Source of the DNA: a virus
IMG/VR virus record: IMGVR_UViG_3300050343_000218
Reading direction: 5' to 3' (one strand)
Length of the DNA: 64,000 nucleotides
Under the pieces are notes generated by a model. It did no database searches and had not been told where the DNA came from. It saw only the letters and a list, made by a program, of their open reading frames with translations. The translations under genes and the position numbers were made by a program. Positions 1 through 49,300 of this stretch are shown here, piece by piece. Within the stretch, counting starts at the first letter, position 1, and each line of letters opens with the position of its first letter.

Positions 1-38
1 GGTTGTTGAGTAAAGTCTACAGGGTCAGGGGTAGGAAT

Positions 39-239
39 CTAGTAGCTTTGTGGCAGTTCGCTACGTGTCCCATATGGACCGCCCATCGCTGGACCGTCTC
101 CCTCTTCCTTGGGTCGTACCATAGCAGCGGCAGAATGGAGAGAATCCGATGCTGTGATCTGGATCCCCTCCCTGATGCTTTCATTAGTAACGACAGCACC
201 TGCAGCGAAAGCGGCAGCGTATGAAAGAATTTTAAGCAT
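39..239 (-). CDS. small hypothetical protein with hydrophobic N-terminus
   Basis: 66-aa ORF in a co-oriented run of small genes; starts MLKILSYAAAFAAGAVV. Confidence 0.55.
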   Translation of the reverse strand: MLKILSYAAAFAAGAVVTNESIREGIQITASDSLHSAAAMVRPKEEGDGPAMGGPYGTRSELPQSY

Positions 240-277
240 TTGGGTTTGGTTTGTTTGCTTGTGTGTATACTAGACGA

Positions 278-490
278 TCATAGGCAGTCGTCTATAGCTT
301 TAAAGACACTTCGCACATCGTCCATCTCATCCGAGATATCGTCACGATCAAACAAAGCATCCTCAATCAATGCCTCCAATGATGCATCCCTGCTGGCAGT
401 GTCAAAGATCTCACCAGCACAATCCTGAATTTCGTTCCACATAATTTTGTCGTAATGAAGGGCAATTGAACAGGGGTCGGAATAGGTCAC
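278..490 (-). CDS. acidic hypothetical early protein
   Basis: 70 aa; start overlaps the stop of the upstream ORF at 487-490. Confidence 0.7.
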   Translation of the reverse strand: MTYSDPCSIALHYDKIMWNEIQDCAGEIFDTASRDASLEALIEDALFDRDDISDEMDDVRSVFKAIDDCL

Positions 491-684
491 AGAATGCCTA
501 GGGCAACTGCTTCCATTACGTCGCCATACTCTCCGACGATTTCACCGAAGGAATCACGGATGTATGCATACTTACCAGATTCATCGTGCATAGCGTAGCA
601 GATGTCCATAGCACGGTCGATGTCCGTGGTGAACTCGGTCTCCCCTAGTGCAGGGCAGTTGATTTCGTAGGTTTCGTTTGTCAT
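487..684 (-). CDS. cyanophage-type hypothetical early protein
   Basis: Track ORF 487..741; ATG at 684 (MTNETYEINCPALGE) preferred because it avoids overlap with the upstream gene. Confidence 0.7.
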   Translation of the reverse strand: MTNETYEINCPALGETEFTTDIDRAMDICYAMHDESGKYAYIRDSFGEIVGEYGDVMEAVALGIL

Positions 685-712
685 ACAGACAGTATGGCAG
701 ATTTTGGGGCGT

Positions 713-913
713 TTAGGGGAAAAGGGTTGACACTTCTTCAACTGTCACAGCGGCGCTGAATTCGGCGTTGTAACGTGAGACAATGTAAGATAGATCTTTT
801 GAGTCTAGATCTTTGTACATAGTGTGGAGGGTGTCGATGTAAGGTTCGCCTGGTACTTCTTTCATTCGATGTACAACAAGCTCCTTAATCAGACTGTCTC
901 TAGTGATAGTCAT
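713..913 (-). CDS. hypothetical early protein
   Basis: Track ORF 713..952; ATG at 913 (MTITRDSLIKELV) is the likely start. Confidence 0.65.
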   Translation of the reverse strand: MTITRDSLIKELVVHRMKEVPGEPYIDTLHTMYKDLDSKDLSYIVSRYNAEFSAAVTVEEVSTLFP

Positions 914-959
914 TAGAGTGAATGTGTGATGGGGATATTTAGTCCCCATCATAATGTGA

Positions 960-1280
960 TCAAGCGAAGAGATAACCAGACTCGAAAGGTTTCACTTCGT
1001 TGTTGTCACGAATGAACCACTGAAAGTCTTTCTGAAAGACACCATCAGTGAGTGCATCACAGAACTCATTGATGATAACATTCAAACGAGACTTGGTGGT
1101 GTTAGACTGCCAACCGCCATCAAAGATGCGAACATTGTTATCAGTCACGGTTGCAATGTGATTGCCGTGAAGATAAACTAGTGAAGCATTGTTGTCGTTA
1201 GTGAAAACCTCGGTGTTAGCAGACTTCCAGCACTTGTTTGCTTGGATGGCGGCGAGCATTTGGGATTCGATCTTACGCAT
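960..1280 (-). CDS. conserved cyanophage early protein
   Basis: 106 aa MRKIESQM..VYLHGNHIA..DGGWQSNTTKSRLN, a pattern I recognise from cyanomyophage early genes; first gene after an early promoter. Confidence 0.85.
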   Translation of the reverse strand: MRKIESQMLAAIQANKCWKSANTEVFTNDNNASLVYLHGNHIATVTDNNVRIFDGGWQSNTTKSRLNVIINEFCDALTDGVFQKDFQWFIRDNNEVKPFESGYLFA

Positions 1281-1309
1281 TTGGTGTCGGAGTTGTTTGA
1301 CTTGAGATT

Positions 1310-1368
1310 AGTATGGCACCGATCAGGGTGCTTTGCAAGCGATAGTGGACACTAGGTCAACTGTCCAC
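1310..1368 (-). promoter_or_regulatory. early promoter with upstream palindrome (copy 1)
   Basis: -10 CATACT (1310-1315), 29-bp gap, perfect GTGGACA-N10-TGTCCAC (1345-1368). Confidence 0.75.
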
Positions 1369-1389
1369 GGGCGGCTGAATCAGTTTGTG

Positions 1390-1680
1390 TTACTTAGTCT
1401 CCACTAATTCCTGCTGATATGACATAAATTGCTCCTCTGTTGCTTCATCCACTGCCTCTTGAATCACTTGATAGATGTAATCAACGTTGCCTACATCATC
1501 AAAGATACGTGCAATCAGTGCAGGATTTTCTACCTGTTGATCATAATCAACCTCACCATCTTCATCCTTTACGTGTATATCTTCCTTGGTATAAATCCAC
1601 GCTGCACATTCTGCATCCTCTCCCTGTTCTTTGATCATCGATGATACTCGGTCTTGAAGTTGCTTGAGAGTGTAGTTCAA
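1390..1680 (-). CDS. acidic hypothetical early protein
   Basis: 96 aa directly downstream of promoter copy 2. Confidence 0.75.
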   Translation of the reverse strand: MNYTLKQLQDRVSSMIKEQGEDAECAAWIYTKEDIHVKDEDGEVDYDQQVENPALIARIFDDVGNVDYIYQVIQEAVDEATEEQFMSYQQELVETK

Positions 1681-1707
1681 AATGATACGAATTCATTTGA
1701 TGTATAC

Positions 1708-1765
1708 ACTATGGCATAAAAAAAGGGGTCTTGCAACCCCTAGTGGACAGCTTAGAAACTGTCAC
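1708..1765 (-). promoter_or_regulatory. early promoter with upstream palindrome (copy 2)
   Basis: -10 CATAGT (1708-1713), 29-bp gap, GTGGACA-N10-TGTCAC (1743-1765). Confidence 0.7.
1718..1740 (-). terminator. rho-independent terminator
   Basis: Minus strand GGGGT-TGCAAG-ACCCC-T7. Confidence 0.8.
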
Positions 1766-1774
1766 ATCAAATAG

Positions 1775-1806
1775 TTTTCCACAGGTTTCTGATGTAATGT
1801 GGAGCA
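1775..1806 (+). promoter_or_regulatory. DnaA-box-like site pair
   Basis: TTTTCCACA at 1775-1783 and inverted 7/9 copy at 1798-1806, intergenic. Confidence 0.45.
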
Positions 1807-1816
1807 CTGTGACGGT

Positions 1817-2215
1817 CTAGTCACCGACCACAACAGCATCAGGTGGCATTGTGCTACCTGTGAAACCGTCCCAACCCTTCTCAGTCATATCATCAGTGAG
1901 CTCTAGAATGTAATCTAGTTTTAGATTAGTCATACTAACTCTTTGATTAATAAACTTACCAATTGATACATCTTCTCTTTGGATTGTATCTTCTTCTGTT
2001 TCTAAAATGTTATCTTCTTCATCTCTATCTTGTTCAGCTTCTAGTTTACCACAGAGTTGCATAAAAGCTGACTGAAATTCATCTAAGTCTTCACATTTAT
2101 ATCCATATTGCTTACTAGTATTGCTTTTGTATACTAGTTTAACAACAGAACTATCGTAGTCTAGTTCCATATATTCAATAGCTGAACTAGGTAGTTCTTC
2201 GTACTTAGTAGTCAT
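1817..2215 (-). CDS. KTSC-like small protein with acidic insertion
   Basis: SSAIEYMELDYDSSVVKLVYKSNTSKQYGY ... SIGKFINQRV resembles the KTSC pattern SSxI..xYD....LxxxF.SG..YxY ... SxGxxxNxxI. Confidence 0.55.
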   Translation of the reverse strand: MTTKYEELPSSAIEYMELDYDSSVVKLVYKSNTSKQYGYKCEDLDEFQSAFMQLCGKLEAEQDRDEEDNILETEEDTIQREDVSIGKFINQRVSMTNLKLDYILELTDDMTEKGWDGFTGSTMPPDAVVVGD

Positions 2216-2236
2216 AGTAGTCTTAGTTATAGTAGT

Positions 2237-2245
2237 ATTATACCA
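2237..2245 (-). promoter_or_regulatory. host-like extended -10 promoter
   Basis: TGG-TATAAT about 20 nt upstream of the ATG at 2215. Confidence 0.6.
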
Positions 2246-2300
2246 TACTATAGGTATAGTATACGTGTAGTGTGGTTAAAGTTTAAAAAGTAAGATTTTA

Positions 2301-2385
2301 ACTTTTTGAACTTTCTTAATTTCTTATCTTTTTGAGTTTTTTGACTTTTTGGGATTTTGAACTTTCTGAGTTTCTTGACTTTCGG
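2301..2385 (+). repeat. degenerate tandem array of ten 7-9-bp T-tract units
   Basis: ACTTTTTGA ACTTTCTTA ATTTCTTA TCTTTTTGA GTTTTTTGA CTTTTTGG GATTTTGA ACTTTCTGA GTTTCTTGA CTTTCGG. Confidence 0.8.
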
Positions 2386-2486
2386 TAGATTGCGTGCTAA
2401 GACCCCAACAGTCCCGCAGCTAACCGTAGATAACTCATAGTATACGAAGAATAGAACACACTAGGTATGTTTATTTAACCATTTAG

Positions 2487-2544
2487 TTTTCCACAGGTTT
2501 TTCCACAACCTTTTCCACAGGCACTGTATAGTAACTGTGGAGAC
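2487..2544 (+). repeat. three direct TTTTCCACA boxes at 12-bp period plus one inverted degenerate box (candidate DnaA-box cluster)
   Basis: Perfect boxes start at 2487, 2499 and 2511; inverted 7/9 box at 2536-2544; TTTTCCACA is the cyanobacterial DnaA-box consensus. Confidence 0.7.
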
Positions 2545-2556
2545 ACTAGGTGGTGA

Positions 2557-2748
2557 CTAGGGAGCTGCTGTGCGGAGCACTACAGTATATTGTTCTAATG
2601 ATTGGTTAATGTTAGAGTATTTGGTTTGTATGTAAGGTGAGACGAATAGTTGTTTGAATGTAGTAGTTTTAATGATACGTATGTCATTAGTGGATAGTTT
2701 ACCCCATCTACAGTAAGCGAAGAGTAGTGTATAAGCTGTTAGTATCAT
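2557..2748 (-). CDS. doubtful hypothetical protein
   Basis: 63-aa ORF overlapping the stop of the upstream gene; unusual TA-rich composition. Confidence 0.35.
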   Translation of the reverse strand: MILTAYTLLFAYCRWGKLSTNDIRIIKTTTFKQLFVSPYIQTKYSNINQSLEQYTVVLRTAAP

Positions 2749-2969
2749 TTGTATTGATCTAACACTTGAGCAATGATTTTAATAGACTCTTGAAACTCTT
2801 CAGCATCTTGTCCACCTTGTACGATGTATGCTAGTTCTTCTAGTGCATCATCAACAGTTAGTCTATTGTTTAACGTTTCACGGTAGTGTGCAACAGCGAG
2901 CATTTCTTCGTGAGTCATTGCCTTATAGGTTGATGGTGTCATTATACAGGAGATGGGGGTGAGTGTCAA
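2745..2969 (-). CDS. hypothetical protein
   Basis: 74 aa, abuts the upstream ORF; the true start may be an internal Met. Confidence 0.6.
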   Translation of the reverse strand: MTLTPISCIMTPSTYKAMTHEEMLAVAHYRETLNNRLTVDDALEELAYIVQGGQDAEEFQESIKIIAQVLDQYK

Positions 2970-3224
2970 CTAGTATCTAGTAGGGATATTCTTAGATTGT
3001 GTCACTTGTTCTTGTGTCACAGTGTTGTCTAGATCAGTAGGGCGTTGACCTAAGATGAGAGACTGTACGACCTTCGCCTTTTTAATGTTATTATCCATTG
3101 CGTTAATAGATCTAGTGATGCACTCATTGATATCATCATACATTTCAGTTGATGTTGATAGAGGATCACAGATGTATGCATCTAGGATAATTTGTAGTTC
3201 AGCTTTCAGTTGTTGGGAAGACAT
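2970..3224 (-). CDS. helical hypothetical protein
   Basis: 84 aa; resembles the C-terminal part of ORF 4725..5120. Confidence 0.7.
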   Translation of the reverse strand: MSSQQLKAELQIILDAYICDPLSTSTEMYDDINECITRSINAMDNNIKKAKVVQSLILGQRPTDLDNTVTQEQVTQSKNIPTRY

Positions 3225-3654
3225 AGTATTTGTAATGGGTGAAAGGTTTAGGGTGATGTAAGGTTAGGAACTTAATAGCGTGTTCTTCACATTGAAACCA
3301 AGCTATACGTTTTTCAGACTTAAGTTCAACTCTATAAGGGAAGGTAGGATGAGGGAATAGTTTAAGTTCCCGTGATCTAGTAGGTTTAAACTCTAGTTTC
3401 TTTACCTTCGCTTTCCGAGTTGTACCAGAACTCTTCTTTGTCTTTTTCTGTTGCTGTGGTGATGTTAGGGTTGATAGGTTTTGGTTTAAGGACTGCTGTG
3501 TTTTTACCTTGGGTGCTGGTTTGGTTTTGTTCGAGGTAGTTTTTGATGAGGGCTTTAAAGTCTTCTTTGGTGTAGGTGTTGAGGATGCTTTCTTTCGGGT
3601 CTGTTTCATCCCAGTCGATGTTGAAGCTTCCGTCTTCGTTTTGCGTGACATCAA
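3199..3654 (-). CDS. K/S/T-rich protein with conserved-looking C-terminal domain (LFPHPTFPYRVEL..WFQCEEH)
   Basis: 151-aa ORF overlapping ORF 3386..3658 in another frame; true start uncertain. Confidence 0.6.
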   Translation of the reverse strand: MMSRKTKTEASTSTGMKQTRKKASSTPTPKKTLKPSSKTTSNKTKPAPKVKTQQSLNQNLSTLTSPQQQKKTKKSSGTTRKAKVKKLEFKPTRSRELKLFPHPTFPYRVELKSEKRIAWFQCEEHAIKFLTLHHPKPFTHYKYYVFPTTES

Positions 3655-3658
3655 TCAT
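3386..3658 (-). CDS. cyanophage-type hypothetical protein
   Basis: MIDVTQNEDGSFNIDWDETDPKESILN.. pattern familiar from cyanomyophages; TAGAAT -10-like element upstream. Confidence 0.7.
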   Translation of the reverse strand: MIDVTQNEDGSFNIDWDETDPKESILNTYTKEDFKALIKNYLEQNQTSTQGKNTAVLKPKPINPNITTATEKDKEEFWYNSESEGKETRV

Positions 3659-3695
3659 TGCCTAGTTAAATAGATGTAATTGAACGTATTCTACT

Positions 3696-3872
3696 ATGAG
3701 TTGTCGAAATTGCCAAGAGGTTGACTTGGATGATCTTGAAGATCAGATGTTTGCTCATTTGATAACAGAAATGGAAGAAGGCTTTACAGTGAAGCTAGAT
3801 GATGGTACAATCATTATCTTCGATAGTTTTGCGGAAGCAAAGGAGTTTATTTTTGATGGCGGATTACGCTAG
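3696..3872 (+). CDS. 58-aa acidic protein with N-terminal CxxC (not in ORF track)
   Basis: Manual translation MSCRNCQEVDLDDLEDQMFAHL..FIFDGGLR*; TTAAATA late-promoter-like box at 3666-3672. Confidence 0.6.
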   Translation: MSCRNCQEVDLDDLEDQMFAHLITEMEEGFTVKLDDGTIIIFDSFAEAKEFIFDGGLR

Positions 3873-4545
3873 AGAAGTAATAGAACATCGTACTGAGCAC
3901 GATACATTAATTAGAGAGTATCCTAATCATATACCACCACAAGTGTGTGATATGATTTGTGACTACACTGATCGCATTGAAGCAGGTCAGGAGCTTGGTG
4001 ATATCCATCGAGATAATGATACCTTCATCCGTAAAGATATCCAGTATTGGATGACTGAAGATTGCAATCCACGGTTACGTAATAGTATACTGAAAGGATG
4101 GGGTAAACTAATGAAGAATCAATATCTAAATGAGTTTACACAGCTTGGATTGAATGATTTCTGGATGAGTGCAGTTAAGATTCAGAAGACATATGCTGGT
4201 GGTGGATTTCATCGTTGGCACTATGATAACAATGGATTTGTAGTAATGGAACGTGAGTTTGTCATTACTTCATACCTTAATGATGTACATAATGGTGGAG
4301 AGACAGAGTTTCTTTATCAAGGTGTACGTGTGAAACCAGAGAAGGGAAAGACTGTAGTATTTCCAGCTGGTTATACACATATGCATAGAGGAAATCCCCC
4401 AATCGGTGGTACAAAATACATTGCAACAACGTGGGGGAATAGAATTCCTCGCATTGATGATAGAACAGAAGACCCAAGTATGGGTCATTATATCCGTCCT
4501 GCTGATCATATCATTGATCAGTATGGTGCTGGTGGATACGGTTAG
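3856..4545 (+). CDS. 2OG-Fe(II) oxygenase, prolyl-4-hydroxylase-like
   Basis: WHYD (HxD), SYLND, GGETEF, HMHRG, KYIATTW; AGGAG at 3841-3845 supports the ATG at 3856. Confidence 0.88.
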   Translation: MADYAREVIEHRTEHDTLIREYPNHIPPQVCDMICDYTDRIEAGQELGDIHRDNDTFIRKDIQYWMTEDCNPRLRNSILKGWGKLMKNQYLNEFTQLGLNDFWMSAVKIQKTYAGGGFHRWHYDNNGFVVMEREFVITSYLNDVHNGGETEFLYQGVRVKPEKGKTVVFPAGYTHMHRGNPPIGGTKYIATTWGNRIPRIDDRTEDPSMGHYIRPADHIIDQYGAGGYG

Positions 4546-4724
4546 AAATCCGTATCATATTTACTATAGAGATAAGCTAGCACCTCATCTCTATATTCTA
4601 GTAACTCGTTATAACACACTTGGTTGTGTGCACATTGACGAAGTGCAGAATCTGGTTTGTATACTGATTCAATAAACAAACCCAATGCACGTCTACGTTT
4701 ATCTTCCTTACATTCATCAGTCAT
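4542..4724 (-). CDS. conserved cyanophage hypothetical protein
   Basis: ALGLFIESVYKPDSALRQCAHNQVCYNELLEYR pattern; stop overlaps the oxygenase stop. Confidence 0.8.
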   Translation of the reverse strand: MTDECKEDKRRRALGLFIESVYKPDSALRQCAHNQVCYNELLEYRDEVLAYLYSKYDTDF

Positions 4725-5120
4725 TTATGATCTCCTCTTGTCAAATAAGTGTATTGATTGCTCGCCATCAAGATAAGCTAAGATAGCATTGGTGCGATTT
4801 AAGTGATCCTGAAAGTAATCCTGTAAACTGTACAATCTTGTCCTGAGATCCGACACGAAGTCGTATGGAGTAAACTCTGTATCGTTTGTAATGTACTCCA
4901 ACAGTATGTCATCCAGTGAACCCATCAGGTGCTCACGATATTTATCCTTCGGTGTTACTGATTCGTCCGAGTTCGTGTCCAAGGTAGAGGTAGAGGTCTC
5001 CACACTTGGTGTGATGACTACGCTCGATGGTTTTTTGTTGGGACTTTGAGAGGAACTGGAGGGCATCTGTGAGGACTTTAATTTCATTGGAGGAAAGAAG
5101 GACTGGTTGACGCATAACAA
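4725..5120 (-). CDS. hypothetical protein (true start uncertain, perhaps ATG 4925)
   Basis: S/P-rich N-terminal half overlaps ORF 4942..5115; C-terminal half is helical. Confidence 0.6.
   Translation of the reverse strand: MLCVNQSFFPPMKLKSSQMPSSSSQSPNKKPSSVVITPSVETSTSTLDTNSDESVTPKDKYREHLMGSLDDILLEYITNDTEFTPYDFVSDLRTRLYSLQDYFQDHLNRTNAILAYLDGEQSIHLFDKRRS
4942..5115 (-). CDS. 57-aa hypothetical protein (not in ORF track)
   Basis: MRQPVLLSSNEIKVLTDALQFLSKSQQKTIERSHHTKCGDLYLYLGHELGRISNTEG*; first ATG after the promoter at 5136-5165. Confidence 0.65.
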   Translation of the reverse strand: MRQPVLLSSNEIKVLTDALQFLSKSQQKTIERSHHTKCGDLYLYLGHELGRISNTEG

Positions 5121-5135
5121 TAATAAGTCAATGAC

Positions 5136-5165
5136 ATTATAACATAGAAGCTTCTATAATGTCTA
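5136..5165 (-). promoter_or_regulatory. host-like sigma70 promoter
   Basis: TAGACA-N18-TATAAT with extended TG. Confidence 0.65.
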
Positions 5166-5277
5166 ACATCTCTCCACACTCATCAGCAGTGTCCTCATCA
5201 GCTAACACTGCATAATCCTCAACTGCATCAGCGAGGATTTCCATCTGGACCTTAGTTAGTGTGATAGTATATTCCAT
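5137..5277 (-). CDS. 46-aa acidic protein (not in ORF track)
   Basis: MEYTITLTKVQMEILADAVEDYAVLADEDTADECGEMLDIIEASML*; start overlaps the upstream stop (TGATG). Confidence 0.65.
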   Translation of the reverse strand: MEYTITLTKVQMEILADAVEDYAVLADEDTADECGEMLDIIEASML

Positions 5278-5531
5278 CAACCCACTGCCATTGGAGTGTA
5301 CTCAGAGCGAGGCATCTGAGACATATTGTATCCATTAACTGTAGCACCGTTAGCGATGCGTGTCTCCCACTCGTTACGTGCTGTGAGTGATGTCACTGTG
5401 CTGTAGGACTTGAGACCGTTAGCATTCCAGGTGACACGCTTCTGGAAACGCTTGACGATCACGTCATCACCTTCAGCGATGAATGCCTCAGGGAAGAAAT
5501 CAACTGTGCAGACGTTGTTGGAGATTTGCAT
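5277..5531 (-). CDS. cyanophage early hypothetical protein
   Basis: 84 aa directly after early promoter copy 7. Confidence 0.75.
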   Translation of the reverse strand: MQISNNVCTVDFFPEAFIAEGDDVIVKRFQKRVTWNANGLKSYSTVTSLTARNEWETRIANGATVNGYNMSQMPRSEYTPMAVG

Positions 5532-5558
5532 TTGAGTGGGGTTGTTTGGTATGTACTT

Positions 5559-5616
5559 ATTATAGCGGGTCAGCGGGTCAGCGCAGCCCGTGTTGGGACA
5601 CTTCGACAGGTGTCAT
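5559..5616 (-). promoter_or_regulatory. early promoter with palindrome (copy 7)
   Basis: TATAAT 5559-5564, 29-bp gap containing tandem GCTGACCC x2, TGGGACA-N10-TGTCAT 5594-5616. Confidence 0.7.
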
Positions 5617-5814
5617 AGCCTGGACAGTGAGACGCTTCCATCCACGCACGTCGCGAATGCCTTCGATCATCTCGCTCACAACACGCTCCAGTTGACGCTC
5701 ACGACCCTTGACAGTGGTGCACTTGCCACACTTGCGGAACAGTTCGCTCACAGTGCTGTCTTCGTTGGTGATGAAGATGTGGTAGTGTGTGTGCTTGACT
5801 TGGGTGACTGCCAT
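5578..5814 (-). CDS. hypothetical early protein
   Basis: 78 aa directly after promoter copy 3. Confidence 0.7.
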   Translation of the reverse strand: MAVTQVKHTHYHIFITNEDSTVSELFRKCGKCTTVKGRERQLERVVSEMIEGIRDVRGWKRLTVQAMTPVEVSQHGLR

Positions 5815-5836
5815 TGGGTGCCTTGCTGATGTACTT

Positions 5837-5895
5837 ATTATAGCGTGTGGAGTGGATCAGACCATACGGACTGTGACACTATGAGTACCGTCCTT
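5837..5895 (-). promoter_or_regulatory. early promoter with degenerate palindrome (copy 3)
   Basis: TATAAT 5837-5842, 30-bp gap, GTGACA-N10-CGTCCTT 5873-5895. Confidence 0.65.
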
Positions 5896-6018
5896 ATCCA
5901 GCTGACGGCAGAGCAATTCGGAATGTATGCTACGTGCCAACTGCTGGTCAAGCGTCTCGTAGCACACTTCACCCTCTTCAGGAGTGACAGCATTGATCTG
6001 ATAGTAGGAACCGATCAT
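5857..6018 (-). CDS. 53-aa hypothetical protein (not in ORF track)
   Basis: MIGSYYQINAVTPEEGEVCYETLDQQLARSIHSELLCRQLDKDGTHSVTVRMV*; TGATG coupling. Confidence 0.6.
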   Translation of the reverse strand: MIGSYYQINAVTPEEGEVCYETLDQQLARSIHSELLCRQLDKDGTHSVTVRMV

Positions 6019-6170
6019 CAGTAGAGTTCTCCGTCTTTAGCTTTGGGGAAGGAATGCACAATCTCCACAATAGTCTGAACCATCTCACCTTGCGCATCTG
6101 CTGGCAGTGCGGTGACATAGAGCAGACCGAGACCGCAGATGAAGGTTGATAGCAACCAAGATTTGCGCAT
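6018..6170 (-). CDS. 50-aa protein with signal-peptide-like N-terminus (not in ORF track)
   Basis: MRKSWLLSTFICGLGLLYVTALPADAQG..; follows promoter copy 4. Confidence 0.6.
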   Translation of the reverse strand: MRKSWLLSTFICGLGLLYVTALPADAQGEMVQTIVEIVHSFPKAKDGELY

Positions 6171-6195
6171 CAGTGGGTTTCTTGCGTATGTACCT

Positions 6196-6254
6196 ATTAT
6201 AATGCCCCCATCACGAAGTGACAGGGGCTCTGTGCCAGCTCTTTAACTGAACAC
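6196..6254 (-). promoter_or_regulatory. early promoter with palindrome (copy 4)
   Basis: TATAAT 6196-6201, 30-bp gap with GC hairpin, GTGCCA-N10-TGAACAC 6232-6254. Confidence 0.7.
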
Positions 6255-6327
6255 TGGTAGGACATCGATGCACGTTATAGTGGGATCCTTAGCAAGGTTC
6301 TCCATAAGGTGCTCAACAGACTCAAGA

Positions 6328-6891
6328 TCATATAATACCACTGATTGGCGAGCGGTAAATCCACTTTTTTTCTTCGGTTGTCTCCACTGTACGCTCCACT
6401 TCATTGATTTTAGTGATGTAATTGTTTGTATAGGACCACCTCTGACCTGTCGTACCCCAACGAATCCACGAAAAAGATGCGTCTTGATACTGTTGGAGCG
6501 GAAGTCCTGGTGTGTTGAACACGGAACGCACTAACGTATAGTCATATTCATTGACTAGGTAGCGCATTTGTCCTTCAACAGTGCTGGGATCACACCCATA
6601 ATTGCTACAGAATGTACCAAGACCCTTGATACGTCCCGCAGATGTCCACTGAAGAAGACCAAATCCTCCGCTCGTGTTCTTATAGCAGTCCATATAGGAT
6701 ACTGCTAGCGTAGGAAAGTAACCCTCACACGCTAGCGGGTTGAATTGTGATTCTTGTTTAATGTTACCAAGAATAACAGCAGCTGCATTTTTATCTGTGA
6801 CGCCATCTTCTTGTAGGACATTTAAAACGGTGTTTTCAACAGGACTGCAAAGGGCACAAACAAGGGCAATTGGTGCAAGGGGACTAGTCAT
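6328..6891 (-). CDS. phage tail-lysozyme-2-like muramidase with hydrophobic N-terminus
   Basis: AAAVILGNIKQESQFNP ... GGFGLLQWT ... STVEGQMRYLVNE fits the Phage_lysozyme2 pattern, with a candidate catalytic Glu in QES. Confidence 0.75.
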   Translation of the reverse strand: MTSPLAPIALVCALCSPVENTVLNVLQEDGVTDKNAAAVILGNIKQESQFNPLACEGYFPTLAVSYMDCYKNTSGGFGLLQWTSAGRIKGLGTFCSNYGCDPSTVEGQMRYLVNEYDYTLVRSVFNTPGLPLQQYQDASFSWIRWGTTGQRWSYTNNYITKINEVERTVETTEEKKWIYRSPISGII

Positions 6892-6928
6892 AGGTTCTAG
6901 GGGTGTTGTAGGGGATTATAGAGGGGTC

Positions 6929-7126
6929 TCACGAGACCTGCTCGAAGTCTTCAATCTGATCTACACTCACACGATGCTCACCAGCAATCATATAATAATG
7001 ATTAGGGGTGCCATTCTCTTGCTCTTGTATACCAAGATACTTGAGTTCAGAGTCTTCAAAGTTGTGCTCACGCATTACAGCTTGTATCTTGAGATGCAAG
7101 AGTTCGTTCTTCTGAGGTACCAACAT
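6929..7126 (-). CDS. hypothetical protein
   Basis: 65 aa in a co-oriented operon. Confidence 0.65.
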   Translation of the reverse strand: MLVPQKNELLHLKIQAVMREHNFEDSELKYLGIQEQENGTPNHYYMIAGEHRVSVDQIEDFEQVS

Positions 7127-7355
7127 AGACCTTGTGCAATTGTGTAAGTGAAGTGATCTTTTTTTCGGGATGTACCACGCATTCCTTCCATTTATAACGT
7201 GGTACGACTACACACGTAATGTTATAGGGACAGCGTGCAAATTCATCTTGGAGCTCACATTTGATGGTGACGGTGATGTAATCATCATCCACAAACCATA
7301 CCATACCACTGATGTTACAGTGGGGGACATCTAACCAGTCTCCAATCTCAAACAT
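7068..7355 (-). CDS. hypothetical protein
   Basis: 95 aa; start coupled to the upstream stop. Confidence 0.65.
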   Translation of the reverse strand: MFEIGDWLDVPHCNISGMVWFVDDDYITVTIKCELQDEFARCPYNITCVVVPRYKWKECVVHPEKKITSLTQLHKVYVGTSEERTLASQDTSCNA

Positions 7356-7654
7356 CAGCTGTGAATAGGTGCAGTGATAGTATCTTTGACATAACAGCTC
7401 TTACCTGTCAACCATTTAGGATACTCTGCATCTTCCATTGCAAGTAGACATTGCATCTGATTGTCAAAATAGTATACATCGTGCCAATGGTTACTATATT
7501 CTCTCTTCTCTTGCAGACGATAGTCAGGCTCACCATTCTCTAGTGTGCCACACGAGACAAAGCGGAAACCGTCACGCTCAAGGATGGTTTTGGTCACAAT
7601 ACGTGCAATCATTGGATCAAGGGATAGTTTAATAGAAAATAGTTTGAATGTCAA
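7355..7654 (-). CDS. conserved cyanophage hypothetical protein
   Basis: GTLENGEPDYRLQ..YYFDNQMQCLLAMEDAEYPKWL pattern. Confidence 0.75.
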   Translation of the reverse strand: MTFKLFSIKLSLDPMIARIVTKTILERDGFRFVSCGTLENGEPDYRLQEKREYSNHWHDVYYFDNQMQCLLAMEDAEYPKWLTGKSCYVKDTITAPIHS

Positions 7655-8019
7655 CGATACAGGTAACCACCTGCCCAGTCACAATTCTCAAACAACCACT
7701 CACGCTCGGTGATGATTAAGAGATTAAAGCGCACACCCTTAGCAGGTGCTTTGTATGATGCTGGCTTGTATACTTCACCTGTCTTCTTGTCAATGAATGC
7801 GTGCACTGATTCAGTTTGACCATTGACGCACTGCATCACTTTGTGATACTTACGACCAGAAGAGATCAACGCATAAGAATAGTTCTGACCATTAGGATGT
7901 GAACGCTGATGAGACTGTTGCAGTGCATCGCACAACATCAAACCATACTTAGTGACGTTGAGTTGGTTGGTGTTGCGAGCATCTTGTGCTGCGCAGTATG
8001 TAGCGAAGTCAGTGGTCAT
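7651..8019 (-). CDS. conserved phage hypothetical protein
   Basis: SVHAFIDKKTGEVYKPASYKAPAKGVRF..DWAGGYLY, a widely seen phage motif. Confidence 0.85.
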   Translation of the reverse strand: MTTDFATYCAAQDARNTNQLNVTKYGLMLCDALQQSHQRSHPNGQNYSYALISSGRKYHKVMQCVNGQTESVHAFIDKKTGEVYKPASYKAPAKGVRFNLLIITEREWLFENCDWAGGYLYR

Positions 8020-45200: not shown

Positions 45201-45410
45201 TCAATTTTCCACAGCTTCGAGAAAATCTGTAGGTTCACAGTAGACCATATAATCCTCGCCTTCGCTCTTGCACATCTGCATCAACCTCAGGAACGCTTCG
45301 TAATCATCAGAGCAATCAAGGGTCTTAAACTCACCTTCATCTGACACAAGGTGGATGGCACGGGTTTGCACATCAACGATGATCTTGTCAACGACTGAGT
45401 TGTCAGGCAT
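45201..45410 (-). CDS. small acidic hypothetical protein
   Basis: 69 aa after the promoter at 45433. Confidence 0.7.
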   Translation of the reverse strand: MPDNSVVDKIIVDVQTRAIHLVSDEGEFKTLDCSDDYEAFLRLMQMCKSEGEDYMVYCEPTDFLEAVEN

Positions 45411-46369: not shown

Positions 46370-49300
46370 TAGGGACAATCCACATAGTTGGCAGGATCTT
46401 TGGCGAGACCTTGCAGAATAAGTTCGGAACGATCTTCAGGAACACATTGAAGATCTGCTTTGGCACGGGCACCAAACCCGTCTCCTCCAGTAATTATAAC
46501 CTCAGGAATCTCAACATATTGCATACCTCCCTTGATTAAAACAATATTATCAACAAATCCCTCTGAACTGAGAGATGCTTTGGCAATAGAGCTATCACCA
46601 TTTACATAAACTGTCGGTGCTTTCGTATACAATCCACCTACATTCTGCAAAGAGAATCCAACTAGTTGGCAAATAATACCACCAGGAATTAAATTGCCAG
46701 TGTAACCTTGACCACCTCTAATAACTCTAACTCGGGTAAGATATCCCTGACTATTCAAAATAGGTTCAACGAATCCACCAAAACCTGTGTTACTTTCAAG
46801 AGATATAAAAGGTAAAGCAGTATATCTAAATCCAGGTTTAGTTACAGGGATGTCAACGATTCCACCGTCGTTGTTGATTATAGGAGTGCCAAACTCAGGT
46901 GTCCCGTCACCAAAACCATCATCATCGTCACCAAAACCATCATCATCATCATCACCGCCGCCAGTACTAGTATCGGTATCGGCATCCTCACTAGCCATAA
47001 GAACAGCTGTTGCACTAGCACCAAACTCATCGATAGAAAATGTAAGATTCTCTGGAACGTCAGCAAATCGATCAGGGCGAACCGTAATTGTAAATTTCGC
47101 TTCACCATCTTCAAAACAAACTACTCCAGTTAGAGGTTGAACGATATCCTCTGGAGTAATGCCAGCACCAAATATAGTATAAGGAAGACAAAGCCCATCA
47201 TCAATGGTGCCGATGATTGTAACGACAGCCTCGCAACCAGGTTCAGAGCAAATTTCTGGAGGATCAATTGTGATATCGGTAATCACCCCTGTTGGCTCAG
47301 GTACCGATGATTCTCCAGATGGATCCTCAACCAGACACGAAGCAGATATACCCAATCCATTTAGTTGAACGATAACTTGTTCTTGAACCTCAGAATCTGA
47401 TTCATCTACATCGTCTTGACGCAATTTAATTTCAACAAAATCAGACCCATCTTCAGCAACTGTGAATGTTCCTGCCAAATCAGCAGCAGAATTCACCATT
47501 TGTATTGGACCACCGCTTTGCTTAATCCATTCAATGTCTCCAAAAGTAATACCAGTCTCAGCTCTACCAATTGTATAGTTAACTGTCGATCCCGTATCCA
47601 CATTAACAGTATTCATTGTAAAGACAACCGTTTCTCCTTCGTTTACTTTCGATTTATCAGCTGATAAAGTATAGAAAGAGTTGTTATCAGGCAACAATGG
47701 AGGTACTATAGGAGGAAGGAAAGGTGGAGTAGTTGGTGGTACTTCTGGTAATGTTGGTGGTGGATTTGTGGGAGGTGGGCAAACTAAAACAATACCAGTT
47801 TTCTTTCTGACTTTTCCACAACCATCATTAAGTTTCATTTTCACATAGAAGTACTTACATTCCTTCTCTTTCTCCTTCAGAGTTCTAGTTTCTCCAGGTC
47901 TTCTAAAACCACCGCCAGAACTTTTATCTTTAGTTGCAAATACAATTAAAGCTTTTCCTGACTGACTAAACTTAGCTTCGCCTCCTTTCACACTAAGGAT
48001 TCTGATGCGTGCGTTTTTATCTTTACGATCATCACCTCTATCATCCTTAAGCCAAATTTGACTCTGCTTTAACTTTACCTTGATAGGTTTGTTAGTAGGA
48101 TTTAAGTTCTCATAAGAGATAAGATAACGTCTTCTACCCTTTCTACCCTCTCCAAAAGGAGCTTGAAGTTTTACTTTTTTGATAACACTATTTTCTTCTC
48201 TAGTGTTTCTATAGATCTGACCTTCGCCATCTTTACCAGTTCTTTTCTTTCGCCTCCAAGTTTTGTTACCAACACTAAATGAATCTAAAGCAACTCCGTG
48301 TTTTTCAGCATCATCATCAGTCCACATCTCAATCTCTACGGTAACTTCACCAGTAGTTTTGTTGCGACTTGAATTATTAATAGTTCGGATAGGAATTACT
48401 TTGCTACGATCACCCCGACCAAACCCCATAAATCCAGAGGTAGCACAATAGTCTTCACCAGCTTTTGCAGTACCATCAGCCGTGTAAAAAGTAACTGCAG
48501 ATGAAGTAGTCAAATCACCTGATCTAAAGATAGGCATATTTGCAGTTTGACCACCGAAAATGTTAATATCACCTGCTCTAAAGAAGCGACGGAAACAACG
48601 TGCTTTTCTTTTACCCCTACGGCGAACACCTGTAGGAGTTTTACCTCTCTTATCAGAGTCGAAAGGAAATTTTTCTTTCTTGCCAGTTTTTTTATTTTTC
48701 TTTCTTCTTCTTCTCCTCCTCCTATCATTATTGTTAGGATCGTCATCATCATCTAGATCATTGATGTCATCAAAACTACCTTCTCCTATTTCATCGGGGA
48801 CTTGTATTCCCCAAATATTCACATCAGTTTGTGGTGCAGGAGCAACCGTTGCAGCATCACAAACACCATCGATCGGGAACTGATCACCATCTTGTAACGA
48901 TGCGAGAAGTTCATCCAGATCATTGTATCCAGCTTTGAGTCCCGCGAATGTACCAGACTTAGTAGATCTCTTGGGAGGTCCGTCAGAACAAGAAGCAATA
49001 CCTGTGCAAGAGATGCCCAGGAGTTCCATCACTGCACTGATTGCACCACCAACTACATCACCAATCGAACCAATAGCACCAAGGACAGATGAAATACTAC
49101 CAAAGATGTCGTCAATAACACCTGTGATTTCCTGCATTACTTTGCCGAGCAGTCCATCAACTAGACGCTTTGTCTGACAAGCAGCCCAGTTAACAACACT
49201 ACCAATGTAACCCATCAAAGTTTCTTCGATGAAGTCTTCCATCCTTTCAAAGATGTCAGTCATCGAACAACCCATTCTTTCTAGGGCCTCAGTAAACCAA

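Follow-up and report, generated by a model that had tools for sequence, protein, structure and literature searches.

The window, as we call the whole 64,000-nt stretch of DNA analysed here from a T4-like marine cyanophage (IMG/VR record IMGVR_UViG_3300050343_000218), holds in its early region three exact copies of the 9-mer TTTTCCACA on the + strand, at positions 2487–2495, 2499–2507 and 2511–2519. They lie in a gap without any ORF (2216–2556); no other non-coding gap in the early region is as large. All nearby genes and ORFs are on the − strand. The gap may reach as far as 2744, since the 63-aa − strand ORF at 2557–2748 matches no Pfam or PHROG family; this ORF is perhaps no gene, in which case the gap would measure 529 bp. 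The same ORF overlaps conserved non-coding blocks. The flanking small genes had no functional match in Pfam or PHROG either. The elements in and around the gap are as follows.

1724–1741, − strand: intrinsic terminator at the end of the early transcription unit in which the array lies
1775–1806, + strand: secondary site read in the sequence, an exact box plus a 7/9 inverted copy
2237–2245, − strand: extended −10-like TGGTATAAT, before gene 2215–1817 and below the T-tract array
2296–2383, no strand assigned: T-tract repeat array, ~10 units of 8–9 bp (17-bp double units), the AT-richest part of the gap (80–83%)
2375–2403, + strand: P1, a predicted promoter-like element seen in the alignment (TTGACT, 17-nt spacer ending in TGC, TAAGAC)
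2461–2486, no strand assigned: AT-rich block (73% AT) directly 5' of box 1, conserved in a 25-sequence alignment
2487–2519, + strand: three exact DnaA boxes with 3-bp spacers; relatives carry the array with different spacers
2527–2532, + strand: possible second −10 hexamer, TATAGT, 7 nt past box 3
2536–2544, − strand: degenerate inverted box (7/9), TGTGGAGAC, convergent with box 3
2555–2577, no strand assigned: conserved block with a small CACT/AGTG-type palindrome followed by TGCGGA, seen in two alignments
2941–2969, − strand: early promoter with a 12/12 consensus match; its transcript would cross the array in the leftward direction

The box array and its surroundings

The boxes of the main array repeat with a period of 12 bp and are separated by the spacers GGT and ACC. 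The degenerate inverted copy lies 16 bp past box 3, or 14 bp past the GG extension of the motif, and relatives carry an exact inverted box 3–5 or 14–15 bp beyond the last direct box. At the secondary site, an exact box (1775–1783) is followed by TGTGGAG (1798–1804), 12 bp past the GG extension. This site is found between the stop of gene 2215–1817 and the terminator of the same gene, and 9 bp separate it from the dyad that belongs to the next early promoter. An exact search bore out the three perfect boxes and their period, the inverted copy and the second site as an earlier, sequence-only reading of this DNA had described them, and the lack of an ORF in 2216–2556 agrees with its placing of the array in a long non-coding stretch of the early region. 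In total the window contains six exact copies of TTTTCCACA, against 1.02 expected from dinucleotide-preserving shuffles, and six copies were reached in 0 of 100 shuffles. The two distant copies had been described as lying inside coding sequence. That holds for the copy at 47812, which is within a 1270-aa ORF; the copy at 45205 is at the extreme end of a 69-aa ORF, adjoining a terminator-like hairpin, and is therefore not clearly coding.

The consensus promoter at 2969–2941 and the terminator at 1741–1724 place the array inside a leftward early transcription unit. Within this unit, TGGTATAAT at 2237–2245 is likely the sense promoter of gene 2215–1817; it was not listed by the consensus promoter scan because it has no −35 hexamer. 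The T-tract array fills the gene-proximal half of the gap. It could serve as iterons, as bent DNA ahead of the sense promoter, or as an A-rich leader of the − strand RNA. T-tract arrays are present in most relatives, and the equivalent array of S-PM2 (L247, 2155–2309) also consists of 17-bp units.

Secondary boxes directly upstream of early-promoter dyads were seen in the window, in Syn1/S-RIM44 and in S-RIM32, and Syn1/S-RIM44, S-RIM32 and S-CREM1 have extra boxes 0.6–1 kb from the main cluster. In the window the dyad concerned is GTGGACA ... TGTCAC (1743–1765), of the type that precedes several early promoters here.

Conservation of the cluster

When positions 1700–3000 of the window were compared with 50,697 phage records by sensitive blastn, 29 records of T4-like cyanophages from several genera were matched, with 86–95% identity at 2452–2529. 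The match is limited to this interval, that is, to the array and ~35 bp before it, in 27 of the 29 records, and only Sf-CH11 and Sf-CH1a match ~200 bp of the upstream gap as well. Positions 2452–2529 are thus the only widely conserved piece within 1.3 kb around the site. The best overall record match in the phage collection had 79–92% identity over 5–13% of the query. A shorter query of 71 nt found 100 records, 94 of which are cyanophage by organism name. Where relatives are annotated, the match always falls between small early genes, in a gap of 270–570 bp, and a gene for a 2OG-Fe(II) oxygenase is usually close by.

For an unbiased sample, 15 Kyanoviridae genera were chosen via the neighbouring gp90 (Kyano_Gp96) gene, not via the boxes, and whole records were searched. 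At least two perfect boxes were present within ~1.5 kb of gp90 in 10 of these genera (Syn9, S-SM2, S-RIM2, S-ShM2, S-E7, Syn30, S-IOM18, S-CAM22, S-CAM8 and S-RIM8). A single box was found near gp90 in S-SSM6b and S-PRM1 (2/15), and no perfect box near gp90 in P-RSM4, S-CAM4 and S-T4 (3/15). Two perfect boxes within 100 bp of each other did not occur outside the early-gene neighbourhood in any record searched. Totals of perfect boxes per record were usually above those of a reversed control word, e.g. 7, 12, 12 and 8 compared with 2, 2, 0 and 1. The cluster that the sequence-only reading described in one virus is therefore conserved across many Kyanoviridae genera rather than absent from related phages.

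Several further observations were made in viral records. ACG-2014d has a second array (L248, 1579–1620) of four inverted boxes, two perfect and two with one mismatch, at an exact period of 11 bp; the main pair, at a distance of 0.9 kb, has an 11-bp period as well. In the S-PM2 record (NC_006820, L247), annotated tRNA genes at 17.4–19.3 kb overlap protein-coding genes and the DnaA-box array, which looks like a shift of the tRNA coordinates. An unrelated group of viral contigs from IMG/VR (L025, L050, L068, L100, L111 and L114) has 3–5 DnaA boxes arranged in a common way, with GGG-spaced pairs followed by one more single box. Many further viral contigs carry their own box arrays.

DnaA as the likely binder

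Across 29 distinct versions of the cluster the 9-mers are letter-perfect and the spacers vary. The third box is direct in Syn1, S-RIM44, the Sf phages and the window, inverted 4–5 bp away in S-CAM3, S-RIM32 and S-PM2, inverted 14–15 bp away in S-CREM1, Syn9, S-RIM2 and S-ShM2, and missing in S-CAM1; in S-MbCM6 the entire cluster is flipped. The boxes are thus conserved as exact 9-mer units in either orientation. Since the 9-mers stay exact while the spacers, the number of boxes and their orientation change, the array has the character of a site for a protein that binds duplex DNA, and an RNA element would not tolerate such change. A structured RNA or tRNA was considered separately and dropped, with no Rfam hit in 1–8000 and no tRNA nearby. 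RNAalifold gave no consensus RNA structure on either strand for the block that follows the boxes (2555–2577).

The 9-mer TTTTCCACA is the published cyanobacterial DnaA-box consensus, whose general form is TTWTNCACA (also bioRxiv 10.1101/866236), and the boxes of the main array match it at 9/9 positions. Exact tandem pairs with 2–3-bp gaps were found in 109 of 401 cyanobacterial genomes, compared with 0 for a control word, and in complete cyanobacterial genomes such pairs often lie 1.5–1.9 kb from base 1. The pair with a 3-bp gap occurs in many bacterial phyla; a dnaA signature was present within ~1 kb of the pair at 22 of 120 bacterial loci, and one bacterial cluster adjoins dnaN (Pfam). The phage layout of two direct boxes plus one inverted box is also seen in many bacterial examples. 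Together, the published consensus, the tandem pairs and their position beside dnaA or dnaN corroborate the earlier naming of the 9-mer as a cyanobacterial DnaA box.

The picocyanobacterial genomes of host type (1.75–2.9 Mb, with dnaN at base 174) present a different picture. Their thrC-dnaN origins have TTTTCCNCA variants with 1–2 mismatches and only 0–1 perfect box, and perfect boxes are not enriched in these genomes (16–25, versus 24–27 for the control word). Two other loci were noted in host-type genomes (L251–L254, ~3750–4080 of each, and L263–L265), both far from the dnaN-side origin. One, beside a GNAT gene, has three perfect boxes, arranged as a single box, ~285 bp and then a tandem pair 2 bp apart; the other has a convergent box pair 35 bp apart. 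These extra loci may be regulatory or titration sites for host DnaA.

The identity of the boxes, their conservation and the bacterial layouts make DnaA the likely binder, and related phages probably dock the DnaA of their host at the array. A different binder, either a small early protein of the phage or another host factor, would make the DnaA-box identity a coincidence or a case of mimicry. The lack of a functional match for the flanking small genes leaves room for such a protein, and direct repeats of 11–12 bp could suit one of response-regulator type. Against this stand the 9/9 match to the DnaA consensus in dozens of diverged phages and layouts identical to those beside dnaA in many bacterial phyla. 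Moreover, no DnaA-type DNA-binding domain was found in the five related phage genomes examined, and a DnaA-like binder encoded by the phage was dropped as a candidate. We regard a binder other than DnaA as very improbable.

A promoter-like element opposed to the early genes

The most constant neighbour of the boxes is P1, which faces them and runs opposite to the flanking genes. P1 is made up of TTGAC(A/T) and TAAGAC, separated by 17 nt of which the last three are TGC, and this spacing is invariant in 24 distinct sequences; the hexamers and the 17-bp spacing are also present in four phages found by synteny alone. All 29 distinct sequences, the four from synteny alone among them, have P1 upstream of the boxes, and this linkage is fixed. 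The boxes begin 30–127 nt downstream of P1, most commonly at 43 nt. From an alignment of 25 related gaps, the four synteny loci and the window itself, the order of the module on the + strand is T-tract repeats, a GC-rich piece, P1, an AT-rich block, the boxes and the conserved block at 2555–2577. In every case the AT-rich block separates P1 from the boxes, and the block at 2555–2577 is kept in 15 distinct relatives. The GC-rich piece carries the early-promoter dyad in most relatives; in the window this is absent.

In several early promoters the dyad, GTGNCA-N10-TGNCAC, precedes the −10 by ~30 nt. The same dyad precedes the antisense P1 in most relatives (e.g. L001, ~2415–2440). Its presence at both kinds of promoter suggests, at the level of sequence, that one regulator may be common to the sense and antisense promoters.

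Some features of P1 and its surroundings fit less well with an antisense promoter. The second hexamer, TAAGAC, ends in C, without the usual final T, and the early promoters of the phage itself carry TATAAT. In S-SM2 and two metagenomic contigs, TTGACA is found 10 bp further upstream and is paired with a different hexamer, although the word GCTAAGAC is kept; since it is kept while TTGACA shifts, this word may serve as something other than a −10. In ACG-2014d the boxes lie 5 bp upstream of a sense promoter instead. No + strand terminator that would yield a short antisense RNA was found in 1600–3100, nor was a conserved hairpin found after the boxes. RNAalifold gave no consensus fold for the P1 block on either strand, and an apparent covarying hairpin noticed by eye around the GCTAAGAC word was dropped.

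A second promoter on the + strand was also considered. The hexamer TATAGT begins 7 nt past box 3, so the boxes would fall in its −35 region. Among 29 distinct relatives, a TAnnnT hexamer starting 3–9 nt past the last box is present in 12, against a background of 13.5%. With a suitable hexamer in just these 12, this promoter was set aside and kept only as a weak candidate.

The leftward transcription unit offers another role for the boxes, in which DnaA bound to all three would halt or slow RNA polymerase coming from 2969–2941 and make expression of gene 2215–1817 DnaA-dependent. DnaA-box complexes block transcribing polymerase in E. coli, and the array does lie within a unit that starts at a consensus promoter and ends at an intrinsic terminator. 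However, the orientation of the boxes relative to sense transcription differs among phages, and gene 2215–1817 appears to have its own extended −10 promoter. A block of this kind would also leave the conserved P1 unexplained, and we consider it quite improbable.

Relation to cellular origins

In bacterial origins the basal unwinding system comprises tandem boxes, a short GC spacer, DnaA-trios and an AT-rich element (PMC8287927, PMC6669920). The phage array resembles it in having tandem consensus boxes at most 3 bp apart, but differs in having neither DnaA-trios nor a 3' AT-rich element, and in the orientation of its boxes, which is not fixed. DnaA-trios, defined here as three or more repeats of CTA on the same strand as the boxes and within ~16 bp on their 3' side, were absent in every frame after box 3 of the window, and Syn1 and S-RIM44 have at most one CTA 3' of the boxes. 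Three cyanobacterial origins that served as positive controls (L255, L258, which is beside dnaN, and L262) show runs of CTA 3' of the box. The DNA 3' of the phage boxes is 40–57% AT, and the AT-rich block lies instead 5' of box 1; the AT-richest DNA, the T-tract array, is 160–200 bp from the boxes. With the trios absent and the AT-rich block on the wrong side, the array is not a copy of oriC, and that candidate was ruled out.

The sequence-only reading had proposed that the array is either a replication origin or a sink for host DnaA. As a true origin, the site would let DnaA open nearby AT-rich DNA or stabilise an R-loop at P1, in the manner of T4 oriF and oriG, and the phage helicase would be loaded there for the first round. 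The largest early non-coding gap, with its box array, AT-rich block, iteron-like T-tracts and non-coding promoter, would suit such a function, and tandem boxes 2–3 bp apart are typical of cyanobacterial origins. To our knowledge, cyanophages do not have the MotA/AsiA system that lies behind the T4 origin promoters, and we know of no cyanomyovirus origin that has been mapped; both points leave room for an origin here. Yet the trios and the 3' AT-rich element, both plain in the three control origins, are lacking, and the AT-rich block is 5' of the boxes, the wrong side for a basal unwinding system. The orientation of the boxes relative to this block varies among phages, and reversed boxes inactivate the B. 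subtilis origin. The cluster is also missing from three genera. Cumulative GC skew, which had been suggested as a check for an origin, has no extremum at 2.5 kb, although skew is weak evidence in T4-like phages; the sole turning point of GC and AT skew, at 6–8 kb, is where gene direction switches, which makes the skew uninformative. Taken together, we find an origin at this site unlikely.

As a sink, the many copies of the phage genome, each with 3–4 consensus boxes, would titrate DnaA from the weaker host origin and so stop new rounds of host replication. The boxes are perfect in the phages, versus 0–1 perfect box in the thrC-dnaN origins of the host type, and perfect boxes are enriched in most of the phage genomes searched and not in the host-type genomes. 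A sink, however, would not require a fixed neighbour, and the boxes invariably occur with P1 and in a single genomic neighbourhood. Each genome has just 2–4 boxes, and the secondary boxes are found at promoters. Titration would moreover act late, after the rise in copy number, whereas the site is in the early region. We judge a sink to be improbable as well.

Of the original proposal the identity of the boxes stands, and the cluster proved to be conserved; an origin or a sink found no support in the form proposed. An antisense promoter-like element constantly accompanies the boxes, and secondary boxes occur just upstream of early promoters; both facts indicate control of transcription at least equally.

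Discussion

The features that remain constant among these phages are perfect boxes and an opposed promoter-like element that reads into them, and they lead us to favour a DnaA-gated antisense promoter module, resembling the pO/oop region of lambda together with the DnaA-box pairs of T5-like phages. We put the probability of this reading at roughly 40%. The array would then be a set of conserved high-affinity sites for host DnaA within a non-coding control module. Soon after the phage DNA has entered the cell, host DnaA would occupy the boxes 30–130 nt downstream of P1, and P1 would fire against the direction of the early genes. Bound DnaA would set the amount or the extent of a non-coding antisense transcript, as at the pO boxes of lambda, and this transcript could tune the opposed early operon, or activate or prime phage replication. 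In both cases DnaA would couple the outcome to the state of host replication. We infer DnaA binding, the firing of P1 and all the steps downstream of them from the arrangement of the conserved elements. Against such a module count the atypical −10 of P1, the retention of GCTAAGAC elsewhere, the lack of an antisense terminator, the sense promoter of ACG-2014d and the three genera without a perfect cluster. The antisense module and the alternatives weighed above are not all mutually exclusive.

DnaA boxes in phage control regions are already known from lambda and T5. At lambda pO, DnaA-box-like sequences downstream of the promoter are footprinted by DnaA, and the activity of pO modulates replication from ori-lambda. 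This is the closest documented case, an antisense promoter in the early region with DnaA boxes just downstream. In lambda there are just two boxes, both degenerate, the RNA is terminated at 77 nt, and the phage supplies its own initiator, O, at an origin that has been mapped. The cyanophage array has three perfect boxes and no known phage initiator, and no terminator was found for it.

Among lytic phages, the T5-like group comes closest in structure, with pairs of DnaA boxes 3 bp apart in a conserved untranslated injection-stop region (bioRxiv 10.1101/866236). T5-like phages are strictly lytic too, and their boxes, like those of the window, form pairs with a gap of exactly 3 bp, within a non-coding early region whose conservation exceeds that of the genes around it. 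In T5, by contrast, eight boxes lie in large inverted repeats (IRC/IRD) within the terminal repeat, and the hypothesised role is to stop the injection of DNA. No large inverted repeats were noticed by eye around the cyanophage array, in a window that contains no genome end. T4-like genomes are circularly permuted, so the injection-stop role does not transfer.

Within the T4 lineage, the R-loop origins of T4, oriF (uvsY) and oriG (gene 34), consist of a promoter followed by an easily melted stretch, and the cyanophage module likewise combines these two elements in a T4-like genome. The T4 origins differ in using MotA-dependent middle promoters and no DnaA, whereas the cyanophage module has a σ70-type element with DnaA boxes after it. 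The titration and inactivation sites of cellular DnaA, datA of E. coli and the DnaA-box clusters of B. subtilis, resemble the array in that high-affinity boxes are grouped at a distance from an unwinding element. Those clusters are chromosomal, have more boxes and, in the case of datA, an IHF site, whereas the cyanophage cluster is carried by a virus and tied to a promoter.

In the literature searched, we found no paper that links cyanophages with DnaA boxes and none relevant on cyanophage origins. A tentative and somewhat doubtful extension of our data is that T4-like cyanophages use host DnaA as an input, either at a first-round origin that is transcript-primed and DnaA-assisted, or as a sensor of the replication phase of the host. 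A sensor would couple early phage transcription and replication to the host replication phase, and hence to the day-night cycle, and either version would be the first dependence on DnaA described in the T4 lineage. A large proportion of marine Synechococcus is killed by T4-like cyanophages. As a conserved place where DnaA could dock, the array would be a concrete, mutable element that bears on the dependence of these phages on host DnaA, on the reading of the cell cycle through DnaA and on the disabling of host replication. Together with lambda and T5, the array adds to the evidence that DnaA boxes may be a widespread control device of phages.
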